The notes: generated by a model from the sequence alone, not told the origin. A stretch of 64,000 nt of DNA from Promethearchaeota archaeon (GCA_019058445.1 JAHPZA010000001.1:128001-192000); one strand, 5' to 3'. Counted from the stretch's first letter, positions 15,058 through 32,086 are shown. Made by a program: numbers and translations.

Positions 15058-17208
15058 ATGGAAACAAAAGATAATGGAAGGTTAAAAATGGTTTTTGTAG
15101 AACAAACGAGTGCACATAAAAAGAAAAGTAAATATCTAAAAAATTTATTACCTAGAGTGTTTAGAACGGAAGGGGATGTGGTTAAGTTTGATCCGTTAAA
15201 AATTGAAAATAGTATCATTAAAGAAACTGGTTTGGATAAAGAAAATGCTGATAGATTAACTGAAATCGTTGTGAGAAGGATCATATCATCAGGAATTCAA
15301 TTTCTCTCAGGACCCCATATTCGAGAAATAGTTTGCTCTGTTCTTTCAGAAGAACACTATGAGGACCAGAGAAAGTTATATACTCGAATTGGAATGCCTT
15401 TAATGGATTATGAAGCTATTTTAGACCAAGGCATAAATGAAAATGCTAATCAAGATATGAATCCTGAGAGTATCCATCACTGGGCTGCAAATCGAATCTC
15501 CGAAGAATATGCGCTTTTAAGGCTTTTAGATTCAGAAGAAGCTAAAGCTCATTTGTATGGTGATATCCATATCCATATGCTAAGATATTTCGATCTTCGT
15601 CCTTTCTGCCAGGAATGGGACCCTCGCATGATTCTCGAGCATGGTTTACCCCCTGTTGAAAGTTGGCCGCATTGTAGTAAATCGGCTCCTGCTGGAAGCT
15701 TGAGAGTGGCTGTAACTCATTTAGCAAAATGGTTAGGCATAATACAAGGGGAATTTTCAGGAGGACAAGGTTATGATTATATTACAACGTTTTTAGCTCC
15801 TTATGCGAGAGGAATTTCTGACAGGGAAATAGAACAATCAATGCAATGCTTAATTTTTGAAACTAACCAAATTTTTGCTGCAAGGGGTGGGCAAGTACCA
15901 TTTACTTCAATATCCTGTACTCCAACAGTACCAGAAGGGTTACTTGATATTTCAGCAATAGGACCTCATGGAAAAATAGTTGGATCTTATGGAGATTATA
16001 AAGATGAATGCCTACAGCTATTTGATGCATTAACGGATGTGTACATTAAAGGAGATCAAAATGGAAAACTTTTTGCTTTTCCAAAACATGAAATAAAAAT
16101 TAAAAAAGAATGGATAAATGATTTCGAACCGTCTTATTTGAAATTGATGGAAGAAGTGGCAACTATGGGTACTCCTTATTTCCTTAATATGTGTCCTGAC
16201 TGGATGCCTGATGAAATACATAGTCAATGTTGTAGAAAATTTCTCAGTGGAAATGAAATCATTAGTAAATGTATCCTTGATCCCGAAAAAAGAAAAGATG
16301 CAAATGTTTGGGAAAATTACGTGACTATTGGCTCTCTTCAAAGTGTAAGCTTAAATCTACCTAGATATGCCTATTTATCTCGAAATGAAGATGATTATTT
16401 GGAAATATTAGATGAAAAAATGGAATTATCTGCTAGAATTTTGATAAAAAAATGGAAGTTAATGGAAAAAAGATTACAATCAGGTCACCTCCCACTGTGC
16501 TGCGGAAAAATAAACGGAAAACCAATTTTTAATATAAACGATCAAAACCTCTCTATAGGTTTTACAGGATTAAATGAAGCCGTTAAAAGTTTAACTGGAG
16601 AAGAACTCCACGAAAGTAAAGATGCGTATAATTTGGGCAAAAAAATATTGGAATTCATGGTCGCAAAATGCAATACAATGACAGAAAGAGATGGATATTC
16701 ATATTCACTCTGGGAACAGCCCGCCGAGAGCAGTTCAGGACGCTTTGCTAAATTGGATTTGAAACATTTTCCTAAAAAAGCAATTCCTCAATCATCTGGT
16801 AAATCTGCTTATTACACAAATTCGGGTCATTTCAGATATGATGCTGATATTCCACTATCAGAAAGAATAAAAAAGCAAGGAGATTATCATCCAATCGTGA
16901 GTGGGGGTGTTATTACTCATATTTTTCTAGGAGAACAAAAACCAGACATAAATGGATTGTGGGAGCTTACAAAAAATATTTGTCTTAACACAAATACGGC
17001 ATATTTTGCATATTCTCCCGATTTTACATACTGTCCGCATTGTCGAAAGATGTTTCGAGGGGGAAGCTTTACCTGTTCTCAGTGTGGATCTCAGGACGCA
17101 AAAGTTTATTCGCGTATTACCGGATATTATAGTGAAGTTAATAGATATAATGCTGGAAAGAGAGCAGAATGGGAAACCCGAAAACGACAAAATATAGTTC
17201 ATATATAA
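15058..17208 (+). CDS. nrdD: Class III (anaerobic) ribonucleoside-triphosphate reductase with ATP cone
   Basis: ATP cone, GDIHIH, QPAES, YYTNS, CxxC...CxxC Zn site and glycyl radical motif YSRITGYY. Confidence 0.96.
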   Translation: METKDNGRLKMVFVEQTSAHKKKSKYLKNLLPRVFRTEGDVVKFDPLKIENSIIKETGLDKENADRLTEIVVRRIISSGIQFLSGPHIREIVCSVLSEEHYEDQRKLYTRIGMPLMDYEAILDQGINENANQDMNPESIHHWAANRISEEYALLRLLDSEEAKAHLYGDIHIHMLRYFDLRPFCQEWDPRMILEHGLPPVESWPHCSKSAPAGSLRVAVTHLAKWLGIIQGEFSGGQGYDYITTFLAPYARGISDREIEQSMQCLIFETNQIFAARGGQVPFTSISCTPTVPEGLLDISAIGPHGKIVGSYGDYKDECLQLFDALTDVYIKGDQNGKLFAFPKHEIKIKKEWINDFEPSYLKLMEEVATMGTPYFLNMCPDWMPDEIHSQCCRKFLSGNEIISKCILDPEKRKDANVWENYVTIGSLQSVSLNLPRYAYLSRNEDDYLEILDEKMELSARILIKKWKLMEKRLQSGHLPLCCGKINGKPIFNINDQNLSIGFTGLNEAVKSLTGEELHESKDAYNLGKKILEFMVAKCNTMTERDGYSYSLWEQPAESSSGRFAKLDLKHFPKKAIPQSSGKSAYYTNSGHFRYDADIPLSERIKKQGDYHPIVSGGVITHIFLGEQKPDINGLWELTKNICLNTNTAYFAYSPDFTYCPHCRKMFRGGSFTCSQCGSQDAKVYSRITGYYSEVNRYNAGKRAEWETRKRQNIVHI

Positions 17209-24648: not shown

Positions 24649-26190
24649 ATGATAAAAATGAACGAGGCAAGCGTTATTGTACCAAAAAGTGAAATTAGTG
24701 ACGATTTCTTAATTAAGAATTACTGTAAGCTCATTAAAAAAGGGGAGATTGAATTTCTAGAGAAAATGGATAGTTTTGACATATATGATAAGAATTATGA
24801 AGAATTAAAGGATGAGTCTAACTATATAAAAATTGATACTAAGAATCTTGTTAATATTTTAAATGATCTCACTATAGAAGATAAAAAAGAAGAAGAAAAA
24901 GTAAAGATTCTGAAAAAGAAAAAAATAATATTTCAGAAACTATGGCCGAATTTTGTAAGGAGTGCTATTAAATATCTAAGAATAAAAGATACTCGAGATA
25001 AAGGTACCTTTAAATTTGATTTTGGAGTCAACAATTTAACAAAATATTTTGAAGAATTCTCAAAATTTGAAGAAATTCTTTATGGAATTGACGAATACTA
25101 TCGAGATCATTCCCTACATGTTTTTAGAGTGTATCTTTTAGGAGTATATTTAGTAAGAAAATTTTTTAAAGATTATGATCAATTGAAGATTAAAAATAAA
25201 CCTTCTATAATCGGTAAAATCTTTTCTGATGAAAAAGAAGCGATTTGGTGCGTTATAGCATTATGTCATGATTTAGGATATCCATTACAGAAATTAGATG
25301 AATTAAATAAAAAACTTGTTAAAATACTCGAATTTTTTGGTACTTCAAATTTTAATCCTTTAAGATTTAGCTTACCTCTTGAAGGAACAATCTTAGACAA
25401 ATTTATTTTAAAATTAATTTCGTCAAGAATCAATGACAACTTATTGATTCAACATCAACCTAAATTTTATGCAAAATACTCTAAGGCTTATGAAAAATTG
25501 AGCCATGGAATAATGTCTTGTATCTTATTAATGAAAAATTTAGTATATTTTAAAGAAACAGATTATGAACCTGATTTCCAAAAAGGTTTTAAATATATTA
25601 AAGAGCCTTCTACAAATAGCAACGATTTTGATGAAAGAACTTTAGAGGATGCAAGACAATATGTAATTAGAAGAGAAATACTACGATCAATTGCTTCCCA
25701 TGATAACGAAGATATTTATCATATAGAAATGAATAATTTTCCCTTTTTATTGATAATGTGTGATGAAATCCAGGAATGGAGCCGACCTGCTTCAAAAATA
25801 AGACTACTATATGCCTTAGATGAAAAAAATAGAGAGATAATTAATATCAATGCTTTTAATGAAAATATAATAGATATCTTAATAAATTTAAATTTTGATG
25901 AAAATGATTTATTAAATTATGTTGCAAAGAAATATATGAAATTTATTCGATTATTGAGAAGTGCTGTAGATTCAGATAAACGGAAATTTAATTTTATAAT
26001 GTCGATACAAAATAGGGAAGGCATAAAATACCAGTTTATTTATGAAAGTCCTAATGAATTCTATACTGATGAAGAAAAGAAAAAAATGGAAATCTCGTAT
26101 GAAGAACCAAAATGTATAAAATTTATAAATGAAAAACCAATAGAAGATTTCTCATTAAGGAATATTATTGATTTAATAAATAAAAAATGA
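24649..26190 (+). CDS. HD-superfamily metal-dependent phosphohydrolase
   Basis: RDHSLHVFRV, CHDLG, SHG, SHD and CDEIQEWSR metal-ligand motifs. Confidence 0.75.
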   Translation: MIKMNEASVIVPKSEISDDFLIKNYCKLIKKGEIEFLEKMDSFDIYDKNYEELKDESNYIKIDTKNLVNILNDLTIEDKKEEEKVKILKKKKIIFQKLWPNFVRSAIKYLRIKDTRDKGTFKFDFGVNNLTKYFEEFSKFEEILYGIDEYYRDHSLHVFRVYLLGVYLVRKFFKDYDQLKIKNKPSIIGKIFSDEKEAIWCVIALCHDLGYPLQKLDELNKKLVKILEFFGTSNFNPLRFSLPLEGTILDKFILKLISSRINDNLLIQHQPKFYAKYSKAYEKLSHGIMSCILLMKNLVYFKETDYEPDFQKGFKYIKEPSTNSNDFDERTLEDARQYVIRREILRSIASHDNEDIYHIEMNNFPFLLIMCDEIQEWSRPASKIRLLYALDEKNREIININAFNENIIDILINLNFDENDLLNYVAKKYMKFIRLLRSAVDSDKRKFNFIMSIQNREGIKYQFIYESPNEFYTDEEKKKMEISYEEPKCIKFINEKPIEDFSLRNIIDLINKK

Positions 26191-26750
26191 CAGTAAATGA
26201 TTATACTGATATAAAAACTATTGAAATTAAGAAAAGGGATTTAATATTTTCTAAAAAAACTCGTTTGTGGTGTAGATTACCATATCCAAATCATCCTTAT
26301 GGATGTCCAAATTATAATAAAAATCCATTATGTCCCCCTTTTGCCGATTACATGGATTATATTAAAAAAAAATATTCTCATTTTTATTTAATTTATGCTA
26401 TTTTTAAATTAAAAAGTCAAAGAGAAAGAATGCTTTCAATCCATCCAAATTGGTCAATAAAAAAAGCTAATTGTTTGTTATATTGGCAGGGTTCTGTAAA
26501 AAAAGTCTTAAAAAACTATATTCAAAGGATTATACTAAAAAATAAAAATAGAAAAACCTATATTTTAGCATGTGGTTCTGGATTTAAATTTAGTAGTATT
26601 CATCAAAATAAAGTCTATAGTATGGAAGCTGTAGGAATAAATGTATTAAAAACTTTAGATAATGTGGGAATAGAATACGAACTTAAACCTAAGAATAAAG
26701 TATTACTAGTTACACTATTATGTTCTCAAGAGTACCTTTTATTTTTTTAA
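26187..26750 (+). CDS. DUF2284-like predicted metal-binding protein
   Basis: WC...GCPNYNKNPLCPP and SMEAVGINV motifs; ATGA overlap with the HD gene. Confidence 0.7.
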   Translation: MTVNDYTDIKTIEIKKRDLIFSKKTRLWCRLPYPNHPYGCPNYNKNPLCPPFADYMDYIKKKYSHFYLIYAIFKLKSQRERMLSIHPNWSIKKANCLLYWQGSVKKVLKNYIQRIILKNKNRKTYILACGSGFKFSSIHQNKVYSMEAVGINVLKTLDNVGIEYELKPKNKVLLVTLLCSQEYLLFF

Positions 26751-27771
26751 ATTCTTCAGGTATATAATCTTTAGTTAAATCTATTTGTTTAATGTTATTG
26801 CATACTAATTTTTGAATTGGACAAATTTCATTACATATTTTTCTTTCTAAACAATATCCACATTTTAGATTTTCTTTAAAATGCTGTAATTCTATATCTA
26901 ATAACCTATTAGAAATAACTTTTCGAAGCGAATTTTTATCATTCAGTTTCACGAAGCAATTTGAAATATTTTTAAAAGCAGTACAAGGAAATAATTTAAG
27001 ATCAGATGTAATCATAAATTTATTTTTTCCAGCTTCACACTTAAAACAAGAATTACTAAGGTTAGAAAATGCCGATCCTATTTCGACTTTAGAGGAAGGA
27101 TAATTTAATTTCACATTATTTAAAATGATAGCTAGATCTTCTTTGCTAAATACTAATTTCTCATGATTTTTTAAAGCCCTACCATGTAATATAAGGCGAA
27201 GTATCTTGACATGTTTAATATTTAGCTCATTTATTAAATATTCTATTGTATCTTCAAGGTATTTAATATTTAAACAATTAGGGATGATATGAACTTCAGT
27301 ATTGATATTTAAATCTATACATGATTTAATTGAAGTTATAGTATTTTCAAAACCAAATGTGGTTTTTGTTAATTTAGCAAAATTTTCTTTATCAATGGTT
27401 TGAAAATTATATCTTATTGTCAAATTAGGATGATTTTTATATCTCATTAAGATATTTTTAGGAATAGGCAAATACTCCCTATCTTTATAAATACATCCAC
27501 AAGAGTAAATTTCCAGCAAAAAATCACAATTTAGAATATAATCAATAAATTCTATAATGTTTGGATGAAGAAATGGTTCTCCTCCTGATAATTGGATAAT
27601 ATCAAGACCAAGTTTTTTAGCATCTTGAATAAGTTCGATAAATTTCTTTTTTTCTATATATTTCTTCTTATAGATGGTTGAATCACTAGAACAAAAAATA
27701 CAATTAAAAGGACATTTGTTAGTTATTTCAATCAACAATTCTTTTTTCTTTTTCAATTTTGCTTTCCTCAA
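26710..27771 (-). CDS. Radical SAM/SPASM domain protein
   Basis: CPFNCIFC, SGGEPF, and SPASM cysteines CEAG...FPC...CGYCLERKICNEICP. Confidence 0.9.
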   Translation of the reverse strand: MRKAKLKKKKELLIEITNKCPFNCIFCSSDSTIYKKKYIEKKKFIELIQDAKKLGLDIIQLSGGEPFLHPNIIEFIDYILNCDFLLEIYSCGCIYKDREYLPIPKNILMRYKNHPNLTIRYNFQTIDKENFAKLTKTTFGFENTITSIKSCIDLNINTEVHIIPNCLNIKYLEDTIEYLINELNIKHVKILRLILHGRALKNHEKLVFSKEDLAIILNNVKLNYPSSKVEIGSAFSNLSNSCFKCEAGKNKFMITSDLKLFPCTAFKNISNCFVKLNDKNSLRKVISNRLLDIELQHFKENLKCGYCLERKICNEICPIQKLVCNNIKQIDLTKDYIPEEFKKIKGTLENIIV

Positions 27772-28065
27772 CGATTCAATTCTAATATTGACTTAGATAC
27801 TTTTAATCTTTTTCTATATAAAAAAATAAAAATATCTTGGTTTTTTCTCATCATCTCCTAAACTTGTTTAACTCTATATTATGCTTAAATATTAGAAATA
27901 TTTTAAATCTTTTAGCTTTTCTCATTTAAAATATATTTCTTAAAAATATTTAAAATTATTGGCAATGAAATTATTCGAAATTTAATAAAATCTCATTTAA
28001 TTAATAAGATTTTGATTTCAATTTAACTTATAATAAAAAAATAGATTTAACCGACAAATTTATAT

Positions 28066-28093
28066 TATTCTCTTTTCTTAAGAATTGAGAATA
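28066..28093. promoter_or_regulatory. 28 bp near-perfect palindrome, putative operator of the adjacent wHTH gene
   Basis: TATTCTC-TT-TTCTTAAGAA-TT-GAGAATA directly after a TATA-like TTTATA, ~35 bp upstream of 28128. Confidence 0.45.
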
Positions 28094-28127
28094 TTTAAAA
28101 ATGCTTGTTTATAATTTAATTATGTAG

Positions 28128-28454
28128 ATGATTGCCCTTGAAAAAGAGATAATTATTATAAATTTTTTAAATGAGAAAGCTATAAATTTATTATATATTC
28201 TAGCTAAAAAATATCCAATAACTAGCGTTAATTTGAGGAATAAGGTTATTAAAAATGAAATAATGTCTATAAGTTCTTACTATAGGTATCTGGATTTCCT
28301 TTTGAAACATAAACTGATAAAAAAAGAAAAATATAGAAAGAAGACAGGGGGTTATATTTATAATATAAGTAATTTTGGTAAGTATTTCCTAGAATTAATT
28401 TTAAAATCAAACATTCCTTTTTATAATAATCTAAATCATGATCTAAACTCATAA
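28128..28454 (+). CDS. Winged helix-turn-helix transcriptional regulator
   Basis: MSISSYYRYLDFLLKHKLI...YNISNFG wHTH pattern; divergent from the radical SAM gene. Confidence 0.7.
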   Translation: MIALEKEIIIINFLNEKAINLLYILAKKYPITSVNLRNKVIKNEIMSISSYYRYLDFLLKHKLIKKEKYRKKTGGYIYNISNFGKYFLELILKSNIPFYNNLNHDLNS

Positions 28455-28959: not shown

Positions 28960-31164
28960 CTAATTTTTAATATAGATTTGTCCTATTCCTGATGTAAAGA
29001 TTTCATAGAATGGAACTGTTAAATCATAAATATTATTATTTTCATTATTAAATTCTATAGATTTTACTTTAGTGAAAGTATTTTTAGCAAATTTCATCCA
29101 TAACTTCTCAACAACAGGAGTATTATATTTCTTTTTTATAAGAAAACTCAATGTATCTAATAATTTTCCTTCAGATATATTCATTGTACTATTCTTTTGA
29201 GCACATCTCGCTGCGATATATGGAATTTTTCCTTTTTCAGATAACATTCTAAGAGATATAGCATAATTCTCTTTTAATTCTACATTCATTTTTTTCATCC
29301 ATGGATTTAAATCGATGACTGGTTCTATATCCCTCCCAAAATGTCCAATTTCTGGAATAGATGGAATAAACTTCCTTAATATAGATAGATTTCTTTTTCC
29401 TTTTATTTCTAAATGATAAGCATTATACCAACTAGGATGTTCTACATTATCAAATTCTCGTTTCCTAATATAAGATGAAATCCCTAAGCGTTTTAATAAA
29501 AAACTCAAACCAAAAACTAATTTGCGTGAAGATGTGTAAAAACTCACTAAAACATCTCTTCGTGGTGAGCCTTCACGTGTATATACTACTTCAGATCCGT
29601 CTCCTTCTAAATAAGCAGCGATAAAACCTTTCACACATTCAATGGGAGCATTATATAGAAATGAAGGAATTTCCTTAAACGGTGCTTTTTCAAGTTTTAA
29701 TCCTAATCCCGTTGAAAACATAGATTTAATTAGAATGGAATTACTATTGACGCTATATACAGTGTTATAATCCGCTTTATCATGTGTAGCAATATAAGGT
29801 GTATATCCAAAATTCCTTTCTATAAGAAATGCTACTTTTTCCATCTCAGTTTTATTATTTCCACAAGTGAACGTAATATGTTTCATAGAACCTTCGGAGC
29901 AGTAATGCCCTAAGATATATCCAACCTCGAAATTTTTCTCAACAAATCTAAAGGCTTTTGTTAATGCATTTTTAACATACTCAATGCCTTTCTCCACAAT
30001 AATTTCTCCACAATTACTAAAGTCTAAGGGGGAATCGTCTTCATTAACATCGATGACTCGAGGCATTAGAATTGGAGTTCCTTCTTTAACGTTTTCTGCT
30101 GTAATTTGGATTATATTAAGATTTTCATCAACAGAAAGTAGCTTATGTTGTTTTGATAACGATAATATCCCATGCTTCAATGTTAAATTTAATGAAAAAT
30201 CTCTATACTTTTTTTTAATTCCTTCAATGGGGATTTTTTTTAATTCAAAATTCTCGTCCAATCCAAAGATATAAGAGTTTTTATAATTTTCTATTTCTTT
30301 AATTTCTATTAGATTATATGAATTTGTATTTAAATCGAACAATAGAACGAGCTCGTTTTGCTGCATTTTAGAAAAAAGATTCTCTTCAATGGGGGTTCGT
30401 TCCTTCTCATACACATCATTAATTCGCTGAAGTTTATCTTCTTGGATAATTTCTTCATCAAAGAATACTTGATTATTTATTTCTTTTTCTTTAATATTCA
30501 CACTCGTTTCTAATCCAAAAAATTGGATTAAATCTTTTCGAATTACTTTTTCGAGGTTAAATAATCCCTCCTCAGTATCAATTTGACTCATTATTTTAAA
30601 TATTATTTCTATTATCCAACACAAGTAGACAAAAAAAGCCTTGCGGTATTTCTTGTTTTTTTTAATTTTCCTTTGGTATATTTTTAGTTCTGAGAGGAAT
30701 CCACTGTAGTTAGCATTTTCGAGATATTTCAAAATATTTAATATTGGTTTTTTAGTTATAATTGGAGTCAAATGAGCTTCAATTCTTTTAATTAGTTCAA
30801 TGGTTAGTTCCATTTGTGAAATCGGCGTGTTTACTTCTCTCTCAAATTTTTTTAATTTAACATAACTCATTCGAGCAATAAATAGAAGATAAGTATCCTT
30901 AAATCGTTGTGAAAATTCTGGATCGTAAATAATAAGCTCTAAGGCACTATTCAACTTATCATTATTATTTTTTTTATAAATTAATTGAACTTTATCAATA
31001 GTTTCAATCGAATAATTCTTAAAGTCAATTTTTTTGCCACATTCTGAGCAGAATATGAATTTTAAATCAATATTAGCAATATTTAAAATTGTATTCACTG
31101 TAATTAACATGCCACATTCTGGACAGTAAATATGTGTTTGTTTAAGTTTGTCTTTGCTTTTCAT
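28960..31164 (-). CDS. Zn-ribbon protein fused to an intein-derived Hint + LAGLIDADG homing endonuclease (no C-extein)
   Basis: CPECG/CSECG; intein-like blocks SKQH, AENVKEGTPILMPR, LGHYCSEGS, FIAAYLEGDGS, YDLTV; ends IYIKN-stop. Confidence 0.8.
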   Translation of the reverse strand: MKSKDKLKQTHIYCPECGMLITVNTILNIANIDLKFIFCSECGKKIDFKNYSIETIDKVQLIYKKNNNDKLNSALELIIYDPEFSQRFKDTYLLFIARMSYVKLKKFEREVNTPISQMELTIELIKRIEAHLTPIITKKPILNILKYLENANYSGFLSELKIYQRKIKKNKKYRKAFFVYLCWIIEIIFKIMSQIDTEEGLFNLEKVIRKDLIQFFGLETSVNIKEKEINNQVFFDEEIIQEDKLQRINDVYEKERTPIEENLFSKMQQNELVLLFDLNTNSYNLIEIKEIENYKNSYIFGLDENFELKKIPIEGIKKKYRDFSLNLTLKHGILSLSKQHKLLSVDENLNIIQITAENVKEGTPILMPRVIDVNEDDSPLDFSNCGEIIVEKGIEYVKNALTKAFRFVEKNFEVGYILGHYCSEGSMKHITFTCGNNKTEMEKVAFLIERNFGYTPYIATHDKADYNTVYSVNSNSILIKSMFSTGLGLKLEKAPFKEIPSFLYNAPIECVKGFIAAYLEGDGSEVVYTREGSPRRDVLVSFYTSSRKLVFGLSFLLKRLGISSYIRKREFDNVEHPSWYNAYHLEIKGKRNLSILRKFIPSIPEIGHFGRDIEPVIDLNPWMKKMNVELKENYAISLRMLSEKGKIPYIAARCAQKNSTMNISEGKLLDTLSFLIKKKYNTPVVEKLWMKFAKNTFTKVKSIEFNNENNNIYDLTVPFYEIFTSGIGQIYIKN

Positions 31165-31339: not shown

Positions 31340-32086
31340 ATGCGAATTGGCGGAATAATTGATATTTCTACAAAAGATATTCCAAATAAAGCATGCATGG
31401 TTATCTTTACTAATGGGTGTAATTTTAATTGCGAATTTTGTCATAACAAACATTTATTACAAAATAATCGCGGTAAAATTATAAAAGTAGAAGAGTTAAT
31501 GAAACTAATAAATAATAACCTACTAGTTAATAGTTTAAGTATCACAGGGGGCGAACCGACGCTTCAGGAGGATTTAGTAGAGTTATGTAGAGAAATCACT
31601 AAGTTAGGGAAATATCTAAGTATAGATACTAACGGTTCTAGACCTGAAATCATTCAAAAAGTTATTCCATATATTAATAGAATTGCTTTAGATATAAAAG
31701 CACCGTTAAAGCAACATCAATTAGAGAGAGTTGCTAGAAAAAGTATAGACCCTACGTTAATTACTCAGACATTTCTTATGCTAAATACCAGTAAGACTAT
31801 TGATTTTGAAATTAGGACCACTTATGCTGAAAACTTATTGACACCAGGGGATATTCATGAGATAATTTTCTTTCTTAAGGAGCATAATTTTAGAGGCAAT
31901 TATGTCTTACAACAATATAACTATTCTGAGGGGGTGGGTAAAGAGTTTAGAAATAAGTTTCATAAGCCGTCGCATCTTTCTTTAGTCAATATTCTTGGTT
32001 CTTATAAAAATCGCAATGTACCTTTTGAAATTTATTTAAGAGATGATATTGTTGGGTATTGCATGCTTAAAGAAATATTTAATTAA
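31340..32086 (+). CDS. nrdG: Anaerobic ribonucleotide reductase activating radical SAM protein
   Basis: FTNGCNFNCEFCHN, ITGGEPTLQ, IDTNGS, LDIKAP, EIRTT; near nrdD. Confidence 0.9.
   Translation: MRIGGIIDISTKDIPNKACMVIFTNGCNFNCEFCHNKHLLQNNRGKIIKVEELMKLINNNLLVNSLSITGGEPTLQEDLVELCREITKLGKYLSIDTNGSRPEIIQKVIPYINRIALDIKAPLKQHQLERVARKSIDPTLITQTFLMLNTSKTIDFEIRTTYAENLLTPGDIHEIIFFLKEHNFRGNYVLQQYNYSEGVGKEFRNKFHKPSHLSLVNILGSYKNRNVPFEIYLRDDIVGYCMLKEIFN

Follow-up and report, generated by a model that had tools for sequence, protein, structure and literature searches.

A mobile radical SAM-HD-DUF2284 gene module in an Asgard archaeal defence island: a candidate nucleotide- or DNA-base-targeting defence system

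HD-superfamily enzymes take part in antiviral nucleotide depletion, and viperins (pVip) are radical SAM (rSAM) enzymes of defence islands that act on nucleotides; it was with these that the genes described here were first compared. Another rSAM type, the 'putative DNA modification/repair radical SAM protein' (TIGR03916/03915/03914), is genetically linked to an Fe-S UDG-family protein and has a presumed role on DNA bases; to our knowledge this pair has no HD partner. The DS-4/NTTI system of E. coli consists of a thymidylate synthase, a dNMP kinase, a 5-hmdU DNA kinase (HMUDK), TIR and Nmad2, and its anti-phage activity has been replicated (DefensePredictor, Science 2026, PMC13092281). 5-HMUDK also occurs with aGPT-Pplase and the rSAM isomerase gp53 in phage thymidine hypermodification pathways (PMC5889632, PMC8989533). 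In oxetanocin-A biosynthesis the rSAM enzyme OxsB works with the HD-domain phosphohydrolase OxsA (review PMC9204698). Full-text literature searches turned up no description of an rSAM/HD/DUF2284 module; HD or rSAM partners of HMUDK may be mentioned in Iyer 2013 and Burroughs 2015.

The stretch of DNA analysed (the window) comprises 64,000 nt from Promethearchaeota archaeon (GCA_019058445.1 JAHPZA010000001.1:128001-192000), with the feature under study at 24649-28454 (Table 1). All four ORFs of the initial annotation are present where it placed them, and the arrangement it described was confirmed. The HD and DUF2284 genes are coupled through ATGA (ATG at 26187-26189 and TGA at 26188-26190, read directly from the sequence), the rSAM gene converges on this pair with a 41-bp 3' overlap (26710-26750, by coordinates), and the wHTH gene is divergent from the rSAM gene. 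Convergent overlaps of 26-65 bp were found again in six Asgard-type loci. The spacer between the divergent genes is presumed to be a control region shared by them. A sigma-70 promoter and terminator scan performed no better than on shuffled sequences, the sigma-70 model being not applicable to an archaeon.

Table 1. Features of the module locus, in window coordinates.
Feature	Coordinates	Strand	Remarks
P0001, divergent HD/PDEase-superfamily metal-dependent phosphohydrolase (predicted), 513 aa	24649..26190	+	Signature protein of the module
P0002, short DUF2284 protein, 187 aa	26187..26750	+	PF10050, E 6.9e-14; third-slot component
P0003, radical SAM enzyme with SPASM-type C-terminal domain, 353 aa, TTG start	26710..27771	-	PF04055, E 6.6e-16
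AT-rich spacer, 356 bp, between the divergent rSAM and wHTH genes	27772..28127	.	Sequence read directly
P0004, small winged-helix-like protein, 108 aa	28128..28454	+	Weak DUF4364 and ScpB matches only

No family in Pfam, NCBIfam or PADLOC reached threshold on P0001; the Pfam HD model (PF01966) scored 12.6 bits, below its cut-off of 22, and matched 6 of 18 family members weakly (best E 0.0034). The H...HD...D metal-ligand motifs of the HD superfamily are present. Residues H157, H207-D208, H351, D372 and R379 are invariant across 124 homologues, at least 90% of which also keep H154 and H286, and P0001 has all of these residues. Structure prediction, which had been suggested as a check, was carried out with AF2 and gave a model of P0001 with a pLDDT of 91 (66.6 for the HD protein modelled from the 18-sequence alignment alone). 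The top 50 matches in a wide VIA-align comparison were nearly all HD/PDE proteins (Z 9.6-5.2, with at most about 240 residues aligned), including class-I phosphodiesterases (Z 9.6, a best value that is middling for a helical protein and gives no substrate), YhaM (8.8) and PPX/GppA (8.4). SAMHD1 stood at ranks 28 and 31 (Z 6.4 and 6.2). Foldseek with the pLDDT-91 model returned nothing at E<=0.001, and neither phmmer nor a profile search with the HD protein matched any PDB sequence up to E 10.

The modelled fold is all-helical and of the HD/PDE type, not specifically SAMHD1-like. Structure prediction supports the HD assignment. The analogy with SAMHD1 and dGTPases is not supported: SAMHD1 scores lower than class-I phosphodiesterases in the comparison, and HMMER detects no sequence similarity between those enzymes and P0001. 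An HD-superfamily fold with metal ligands is common to both. Unlike the module, SAMHD1/dGTPase-type defences lack an obligate rSAM partner, and the evidence gives no specific indication of dNTP depletion.

P0002 matches PF10050 at 52.4 bits (cut-off 25) over profile positions 3-159 of 161. Invariant positions in the DUF2284 alignment are C29, G39-C40, C49-P50-P51 and S145-x-E147. As initially described, the N-terminal Cys cluster (C29/C40/C49-P-P) is kept and the usual second cluster is gone: the GSCRLCKPCxC...PC motif of bacterial DUF2284 members is absent from P0002 and from its Asgard orthologue. A profile search of PDB sequences with the DUF2284 alignment yielded no relatives. The loss of one Cys cluster in Asgard DUF2284 counts against the defence interpretation set out below.

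P0003 matches the rSAM domain profile PF04055 at 59.4 bits, and C20, C24 and C27 (CxxxCxxC) and G63-G64-E65 are invariant among its aligned homologues, the last forming the GGEP motif in P0003. At the C-terminus a CxxCx5Cx3C pattern is found; P0003 carries C245, C263, CGYCLERKICNEIC and C317, with the auxiliary-cluster cysteines present. C245, C263 and C317 are invariant in the alignment, and Bacillota members keep only three of the cysteines of this SPASM tail. PF13186 (SPASM) is significant in four homologues (L017, L004, L007 and L005) and not in P0003 itself. Pfam assigns Radical_SAM and Fer4_12 only, with no B12-binding domain. The viperin analogy drawn initially is not supported: the rSAM profile matches PqqE over its full length (8e-33), whereas viperin structures are matched at about 1e-8 over positions 14-165 only, the generic rSAM core. 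No viperin NCBIfam model is among the best 25 matches of P0003, or among the 25 families most widely matched by 22 rSAM members, and the PADLOC pVip models reach only about 40 bits. Viperin, moreover, has neither a SPASM/auxiliary-cluster domain nor an obligate HD partner, in contrast to P0003 with its Cys-rich tail. Judged by its motifs and profiles, P0003 is a SPASM-type radical SAM enzyme and not a viperin. Catalytic motifs are intact in all three window enzymes.

SPASM-type rSAM enzymes are mostly peptide or protein modifiers, which counts against a role in nucleotide- or base-directed defence, and the nearest solved relatives are peptide maturases (PqqE, SuiB, SkfB and CteB). The module might accordingly belong to biosynthesis or maturation outside immunity, the rSAM enzyme maturing a peptide or protein, or the rSAM-HD pair making a secreted nucleoside-type product, with the HD and DUF2284 proteins as tailoring or redox helpers. 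OxsA/OxsB is itself an antibiotic pathway, and conserved small ORFs (c10 and c13) lie 5' of the rSAM gene in some Bacillota loci. A renewed search of the window, however, found no plausible small ORF that could encode a precursor peptide, as had been reported initially; the spacer contains no conserved small ORF, and no precursor ORF was found in the Asgard loci. The rSAM gene can be replaced by a thymidylate-synthase-like gene (locus L031) or by a UDG-Panacea fusion, the third position of the module is held by enzymes that act on DNA, genes for transport, resistance or additional tailoring do not recur, and the setting is a defence island or a mobile element. Biosynthesis is on this balance quite unlikely.

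The initial annotation had named co-occurrence of the three enzyme families across genomes as a test of linkage. Among 97 loci that could be judged, from archaea and at least six bacterial phyla, 91 have an rSAM homologue adjoining the HD gene (31/36 when genome loci are taken), and in six members of the family rSAM and HD are naturally fused into one protein. Gene order varies between clades while the trio stays together. That the rSAM, HD and DUF2284 genes form a real functional unit is well supported, because the neighbourhood is conserved, the gene order changes and natural fusions exist. An assembly of four genes by chance in a crowded island could be argued from the opposite strand of the rSAM gene and from the lack of a conserved homologue of the wHTH gene. 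It is extremely improbable against the rSAM-HD adjacency across domains, the fusions, and the convergent overlapping layout itself, which is kept in about 10 Asgard-type loci. Co-occurrence and fusions refute it for the three enzyme genes, so that it is possible only for the wHTH gene.

Of the suggested linkage of four genes, then, the part concerning the three enzymes stood; that of the wHTH gene is not established. No homologue of P0004 was detected in about 118 loci, even at E<=10, and hhalign comparison with the Asgard small-ORF family A6 gave a probability of 0.1. What recurs is a regulator in the corresponding place, which belongs to an unrelated wHTH family in Asgard loci (L040, L041, L043, L045 and L049) and is a MerR or XRE/M78 protein in bacteria. 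P0004 is a candidate local regulator and not a conserved member of the module.

The rSAM and HD proteins form an obligate pair with an exchangeable third part. This is DUF2284 in 46 loci, an Fe-S UDG-like protein (family 4/5-like) in 30 and HMUDK, often with TIR and Nmad2, in 18 (PF18723, E ~1e-110). The three alternatives never occur together in one locus, and at least 13 switches between them were placed on the HD tree. HMUDK-TIR-Nmad2 adjoin rSAM-HD in L003, L007, L038 and L119, among others. The idea that DUF2284 is a cryptic UDG found no support (hhalign against UDG-like proteins, probability 0.2); as profile similarity is lacking, a shared slot need not mean a shared activity.

The UDG-like partners are relatives of genuine repair enzymes, and the module could act in DNA repair of a radical-, UV- or deamination-type pyrimidine lesion, in the manner of spore photoproduct lyase or of the 'rSAM linked to UDG' pair (TIGR03916/TIGR03914). 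That pair is far commoner and less mobile than the module, and its rSAM protein belongs to a different family: TIGR03916 is neither among the best-matching NCBIfam models nor among the 25 families hit by the greatest number of the 22 rSAM members. Spore photoproduct lyase, also an rSAM enzyme, has DNA as its substrate (PMC8989533), and MerR-type regulators lie upstream of the module in Nitrospirota. Repair is nevertheless very unlikely given the association with TIR, Nmad2, XRE/M78 and integrases, and given an extremely patchy, mobile distribution that is unlike housekeeping repair.

That distribution was surveyed at several levels. None of nine congeners searched has the module, and a full orthologue was found in one among 60 relatives; a search at E<=1e-30 across 1.84 billion representatives retrieved no more than 273 clusters. 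The module is absent from 50,697 phage records and present in one of 2.9 million viral contigs and one of 72,556 plasmids. It is a cell-side, patchy, rare and horizontally moving module that ranges from Asgard archaea to gut bacteria. The island has a GC content of 23-27%, against 30-35% in its flanks. Neighbours of the module include Shedu, HNH-STAND, OLD-Schlafen, a type I R-M system, an integrase and a DDE transposase; some are ordinary (sulfatase, LRR and VWA proteins). PADLOC scanning of the neighbours gave MADS and R-M matches, as a raw listing uncorrected for background. That the module stands next to nrdD/nrdG mostly reflects the make-up of the island as a whole. At a distant locus (L115) the module lies inside an nrdD...nrdG operon.

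UDG-like proteins bind flipped pyrimidines, and a third part of this kind, together with the type I R-M and MADS genes nearby, would suit hypermodification of self DNA. An unusual pyrimidine modification would be placed or kept in host DNA, either as an epigenetic mark or as the protective half of a restriction-like system, with no direct attack on invaders. The associated 5-hmdU DNA kinase, Nmad2 and thymidylate-synthase-like gene belong to families defined in DNA hypermodification pathways, and gp53 of phage M6 is a radical SAM enzyme acting on modified thymine in DNA (PMC8989533). Both the phage pathways and the module family gather a 5-hmdU DNA kinase, an rSAM protein and thymidylate-synthase-type enzymes around a uracil-derived base. 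The phage pathways, however, are phage-encoded and use an SPL-like rSAM, aGPT-Pplases and PLP enzymes, whereas the module is cellular, with an HD enzyme and DUF2284 or UDG. The hypermodification clusters known so far come from viruses, whereas phage genomes lack the module almost entirely; neither an aGPT-Pplase nor a partner of DNA transferase type turned up, the kinase is missing from the window version, and no cognate nuclease is consistently adjacent. DS-4 of E. coli, which has these accessory parts too, scored as a defence. On this balance self-modification is considered fairly unlikely.

Extended relatives of the module have HMUDK, TIR-like and Nmad2 proteins (3 of the 5 DS-4 parts) in one operon with rSAM-HD, and both are accessory, mobile cassettes of nucleotide-metabolism type. 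The places of rSAM and HD in the module family are taken in DS-4 by a thymidylate synthase and a dNMP kinase. Among the neighbouring genes in the window, none of the five DS-4 parts was found, a point that weighs against the defence reading. The substrate of OxsB/OxsA is reportedly a deoxynucleotide and the product is said to be an antiviral nucleoside analogue. That system gives a precedent for an HD and rSAM pair acting on a nucleotide and so supports a nucleotide-directed function. It differs in that OxsB is cobalamin-dependent, P0003 being of SPASM type with no B12 domain found; in that OxsA is a small HD protein without detectable sequence similarity to P0001; and in that OxsAB makes a secreted antibiotic and, unlike the module, is not encoded by defence-island genes.

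The three-gene module is, on balance, somewhat favoured to be a new nucleotide- or DNA-base-targeting defence module in a minimal Asgard-type version, most likely antiviral, and its target is most likely pyrimidine nucleotides or DNA bases. The nucleotide/DNA-base conflict reading was reached because the setting is a defence island and because parts of DS-4/NTTI recur in sister versions of the module. To this extent the new nucleotide-based defence system proposed in the initial annotation is partly supported, without its depletion and viperin analogies. A pyrimidine (deoxy)nucleotide would be the joint substrate of the rSAM-HD pair, with phosphates set or removed by the HD enzyme and radical chemistry on the base or sugar performed by the rSAM enzyme. 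This chemistry would resemble that of OxsB/OxsA and stand in for the thymidylate-synthase and dNMP-kinase pair of DS-4. The third component may read or process the resulting uracil-type base in DNA, by which replicating foreign DNA would be poisoned or marked. A small regulator encoded close by (a wHTH protein here, a MerR or XRE/M78 protein in other loci) would hold the module silent until needed. A bolder and more doubtful proposal is that rSAM-HD is a physically coupled machine making a new antiviral nucleotide or DNA-base lesion independently of viperin, conserved between Asgard archaea and the Bacillota and Bacteroidota of the gut, with plug-in DNA-base readers (DUF2284, UDG-like or 5-hmdU kinase). 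If true, it would give a first function for DUF2284 and a new class of radical-SAM immunity.

Because natural fusions exist and several carriers are in culture, the module can be tested directly. Should it be a defence system, it would be the second radical-SAM type of prokaryotic immunity after viperin. Its enzymology would differ, in that an HD-type phosphohydrolase is the obligate partner of a SPASM enzyme and is sometimes fused to it. Such a system would show what stands in for thymidylate synthase and kinase in relatives of the validated DS-4, and would for the first time place DUF2284, and a new HD family outside all curated libraries, in a functional context. It would also be an Asgard-archaeal addition to the nucleotide-centred immune repertoire.

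All four open reading frames of the initial annotation were present where it had placed them, and their arrangement was as it described: the HD-like and DUF2284 genes had an ATGA in common, the radical SAM gene converged on this pair with a 41-bp overlap, and the wHTH-like gene was divergent from the radical SAM gene across a spacer of 356 bp. TTG is the start codon of the radical SAM reading frame in the window as well as in L039, the closest metagenomic relative (radical SAM 77% identical, HD protein 75% identical), and neither has an in-frame ATG near the conserved N-terminus. The GC content of the block holding the module was 23-27% vs 30-35% in its flanks. The module lay in this block between nrdD and nrdG, together with three defence genes: one for a Shedu nuclease, one for a giant protein that bears HNH, and one for a fusion of an OLD-type ATPase with Schlafen.

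Coordinates of the genes discussed (window positions unless prefixed with a comparison locus)
Feature	Position	Strand	Remarks
nrdD	15058-17208		
HD-like gene, P0001	24649-26190	+	513 aa
DUF2284 gene, P0002	26187-26750	+	Pfam DUF2284, 52.4 bits
Radical SAM gene, P0003	26710-27771	-	Pfam Radical_SAM, 59.4 bits
TTG start of P0003	27769-27771		
wHTH-like gene, P0004	28128-28454	+	108 aa; sub-threshold DUF4364 match only (Pfam)
Intein-derived LAGLIDADG endonuclease gene	28960-31164	-	
nrdG	31340-32086		
LAGLIDADG gene, metagenomic relative	L039:350-1906	-	518 aa
TTG start of radical SAM gene, metagenomic relative	L039:5688-5690		
Thermoplasmata locus	L005:7740-12809		
UDG-like/SocA fusion gene	L020:69-1211		
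Distant bacterial-type module	L115:1-4763		JGI24702J35022_10004540
DUF2284 locus of a huge phage	L126:3998-6522		LR756501

The comparison covered 36 loci of species-representative genomes, 1 of viral contigs and 80 of metagenomes, which were annotated with HMMs built from recurrent neighbours. A homologue of P0003 adjoined the HD gene in 91 of the 97 loci with enough flank. The third gene was DUF2284 in 46 loci, and in 30 it encoded an Fe-S UDG family 4/5-like protein that has APGRxGA and HPS motifs (PF03167 at 1e-23 to 1e-28). Of the 92 loci that could be judged, 76 had one or the other, and most of the remainder carried a 5-hmdU DNA kinase (HMUDK; 18 loci, PF18723, E about 1e-110). Two of these three types were never found in one locus, and the type switched at least 13 times on the HD-protein tree, even between well-supported sisters. 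The gene order was radical SAM, HD, DUF2284 or radical SAM, UDG, HD in most bacteria, whereas a second archaeal-type clade had a reversed DUF2284 gene followed by forward radical SAM and HD genes; in about nine Asgard-type loci, as in the window, HD and then DUF2284 faced a reversed radical SAM gene, and the 3' ends overlapped by 26-65 bp. Single-chain fusions of 751-885 aa, with the radical SAM domain N-terminal and the HD domain C-terminal, were found in six of the representative proteins (P0130, P0131, P0221, P0232, P0238 and P0240), which would be useful constructs for biochemistry. Because proximity was kept despite rearrangement, and because of these fusions, the radical SAM, HD and third-slot genes appear to form a functional unit, about as strongly as comparative evidence can indicate; that they are chance neighbours is scarcely credible. 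Linkage of the four genes, previously called unproven, is thus well supported for HD, DUF2284 and radical SAM and not supported for the wHTH gene. In one locus (L020), which lacked a radical SAM gene, the gene directly upstream of HD encoded a fusion between a UDG family 4/5-like domain and a SocA/Panacea (antitoxin-type) one.

P0004 had no homologue in any compared locus. An unrelated small wHTH-like family occupied its position in five Asgard-type loci, and MerR genes, or XRE and M78-peptidase genes, lay upstream of bacterial versions. Since such genes hold that position elsewhere, a predicted local regulator recurs at the module, and P0004 itself does not. A recurrent set accompanying the radical SAM-HD pair comprised an XRE-HTH protein, an M78 (ImmA/IrrE-type) peptidase, a protein of ~250-300 aa without a Pfam match, and the 5-hmdU DNA kinase (L010, L012, L013, L031, L035, L063, L105, L107, L108, L110 and L114; Planctomycetota, Deltaproteobacteria and others). 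This set looks like a repressor-protease switch over the cassette.

P0001 was not recognised by any curated library tried (Pfam, NCBIfam, PADLOC), and no PDB sequence was matched by the protein itself or by the profile of its family. Across 124 aligned homologues H157, H207-D208, H351, D372 and R379 were invariant, while R152, H154 and H286 were kept in at least 90%; this H/D pattern corresponds to the predicted ligands of a metal-binding HD site. PF01966 was the sole Pfam family recurring across members (6/18, best E 0.0034), with its alignment covering the H...HD segment. A model computed from a deep alignment had a pLDDT of 91 and a pTM of 0.93; one from 18 sequences was poor. Foldseek returned no match to the model. 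In an alignment-based search of 48,161 PDB representatives nearly all matches were HD/PDEase-superfamily proteins, among them class-I phosphodiesterases (Z 9.6-7.6, ~230 residues aligned), YhaM (8.8), PPX/GppA (8.4), YqeK (6.5), SAMHD1 (6.4), Cas3-HD (6.0) and PhnZ (5.8); for a helical protein such Z scores are middling, and it is the consistency of the matched superfamily that counts. P0001 was accepted as a divergent HD/PDE-type metal phosphohydrolase. The earlier HD label is retained in this sense on the residues, PF01966 and the model, and a specific SAMHD1/dGTPase affinity is not supported: HMMER showed no sequence similarity, and SAMHD1 scored below the class-I phosphodiesterases. Six related Asgard genomes (G010, G023, G028, G034, G042 and G046; e.g. 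L123-L125) encoded another kind of HD protein, about 480-506 aa long, that matched the family core only (profile positions 123-292, E 1e-12 to 1e-16) and is possibly a sister family.

Members of the radical SAM family bear CxxxCxxC and GGEP and, in the C-terminal part, three invariant cysteines; P0003 itself also has the full CxxCx5Cx3C motif. Its family profile matched PqqE over the full length (8e-33), followed by SuiB, SkfB, the nucleoside-acting BlsE, CteB, BtrN and MoaA; viperins matched in the generic core only (about 1e-8), and no NCBIfam model came near its cut-off. For these reasons P0003 is not a viperin but a SPASM/twitch-type enzyme, from a family that is not yet curated, and the analogy drawn earlier was abandoned. 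Peptide or natural-product biosynthesis, another reading of the module, was judged unlikely.

The cysteine pattern reported for P0002 was borne out by alignment: the N-terminal C...GC...CPP cluster was present and the second cluster absent, as it was from the Asgard orthologue. DUF2284 was present in the literature searched as table entries only. In a 735-kb uncultured phage the gene of a short DUF2284 protein, which shares 31% identity with P0002, came directly after that of a DEAD_2/Helicase_C_2 helicase of 589 aa, and neither radical SAM nor HD lay nearby. The Atlas clusters nearest P0002 were 69-83% viral; DUF2284 therefore occurs in other, phage-borne partnerships too. In a Thermoplasmata locus HD was followed by a 287-aa gene without known function, by radical SAM, and by a gene whose 359-aa product contains two DUF2284 repeats.

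The HD family is rare and patchily distributed, and it belongs to the cell side. A search of 1.84 billion representatives gave 273 clusters at E ≤ 1e-30. The family occurred on a single contig out of 2.9 million viral ones, on 1 of 72,556 plasmids and in none of 50,697 phage records. Carriers included Asgard archaea, methanogens, Thermoplasmata, Nitrospirota, Bacillota, Bacteroidota, Planctomycetota and Deltaproteobacteria. Cultured organisms with an intact module are Clostridium muellerianum P21 (L016), Blautia sp. HCP3S3_C4 (L019) and Lachnospiraceae bacterium 28-4 (L024), and Parabacteroides has a version of six genes (L119). The module was found in none of nine same-genus genomes searched (three at least 91% complete), and a full orthologue in one of 60 relatives. 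MADS and R-M components occurred among 105 neighbours sampled with no background control; a complete type I R-M system adjoined one module (L045), and an integrase and a DDE transposase were other neighbours.

Placement at nrdD/nrdG was found twice, independently, in the window and in a distant bacterial-type module (HD 34% identical). The latter lay inside a co-directional operon in the order NrdD C-terminus, radical SAM, HD, DUF2284, a 179-aa ORF resembling by eye an inorganic pyrophosphatase, and an NrdG-like activase. In L039 a LAGLIDADG protein directly upstream of HD was closely homologous to that of the window (E 7.5e-162), which lies on the opposite side of the module. This placement and flank may be due to an insertion hot spot, to hitch-hiking with a homing element, or to some connection with anaerobic dNTP synthesis.

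In several lineages the operon also included HMUDK, Nmad2 and a TIR-like protein of ThsB type. DS-4 (working name NTTI), whose anti-phage activity in E. coli was replicated, consists of thymidylate synthase, an adenylate/dNMP kinase, HMUDK, TIR and Nmad2 according to the DefensePredictor paper (PMC13092281), and thus has the synthase and kinase where the present family has radical SAM and HD. In a Paenibacillus locus (L031) a thymidylate synthase-like gene stood at the usual radical SAM place, adjoining HD and HMUDK.

The substrates of thymidylate synthase and dNMP kinase are free pyrimidine nucleotides, uracil-type bases in DNA are the targets of UDG-like proteins and HMUDK, and HD enzymes typically hydrolyse nucleotide or nucleic-acid phosphates. 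OxsA/OxsB is an HD/radical-SAM pair that acts in concert in oxetanocin-A synthesis (PMC9204698). Together these suggest a two-step scheme, in which the radical SAM-HD pair would make or process a non-canonical pyrimidine nucleotide and the exchangeable third protein would handle the matching base in DNA, so that replicating foreign DNA may be poisoned or marked. Other readings of the module are hypermodification of self DNA, which is rather unlikely, and DNA repair, which is quite improbable. Somewhat favoured is an antiviral conflict module whose targets would be nucleotides or DNA bases; its specific chemistry is much less certain. PADLOC held no model for the module's HD or DUF2284, and targeted literature searches gave no description of it, although earlier computational work may mention it. 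The window holds the minimal, Asgard-type form of this probable nucleotide- or DNA-base-centred conflict system.
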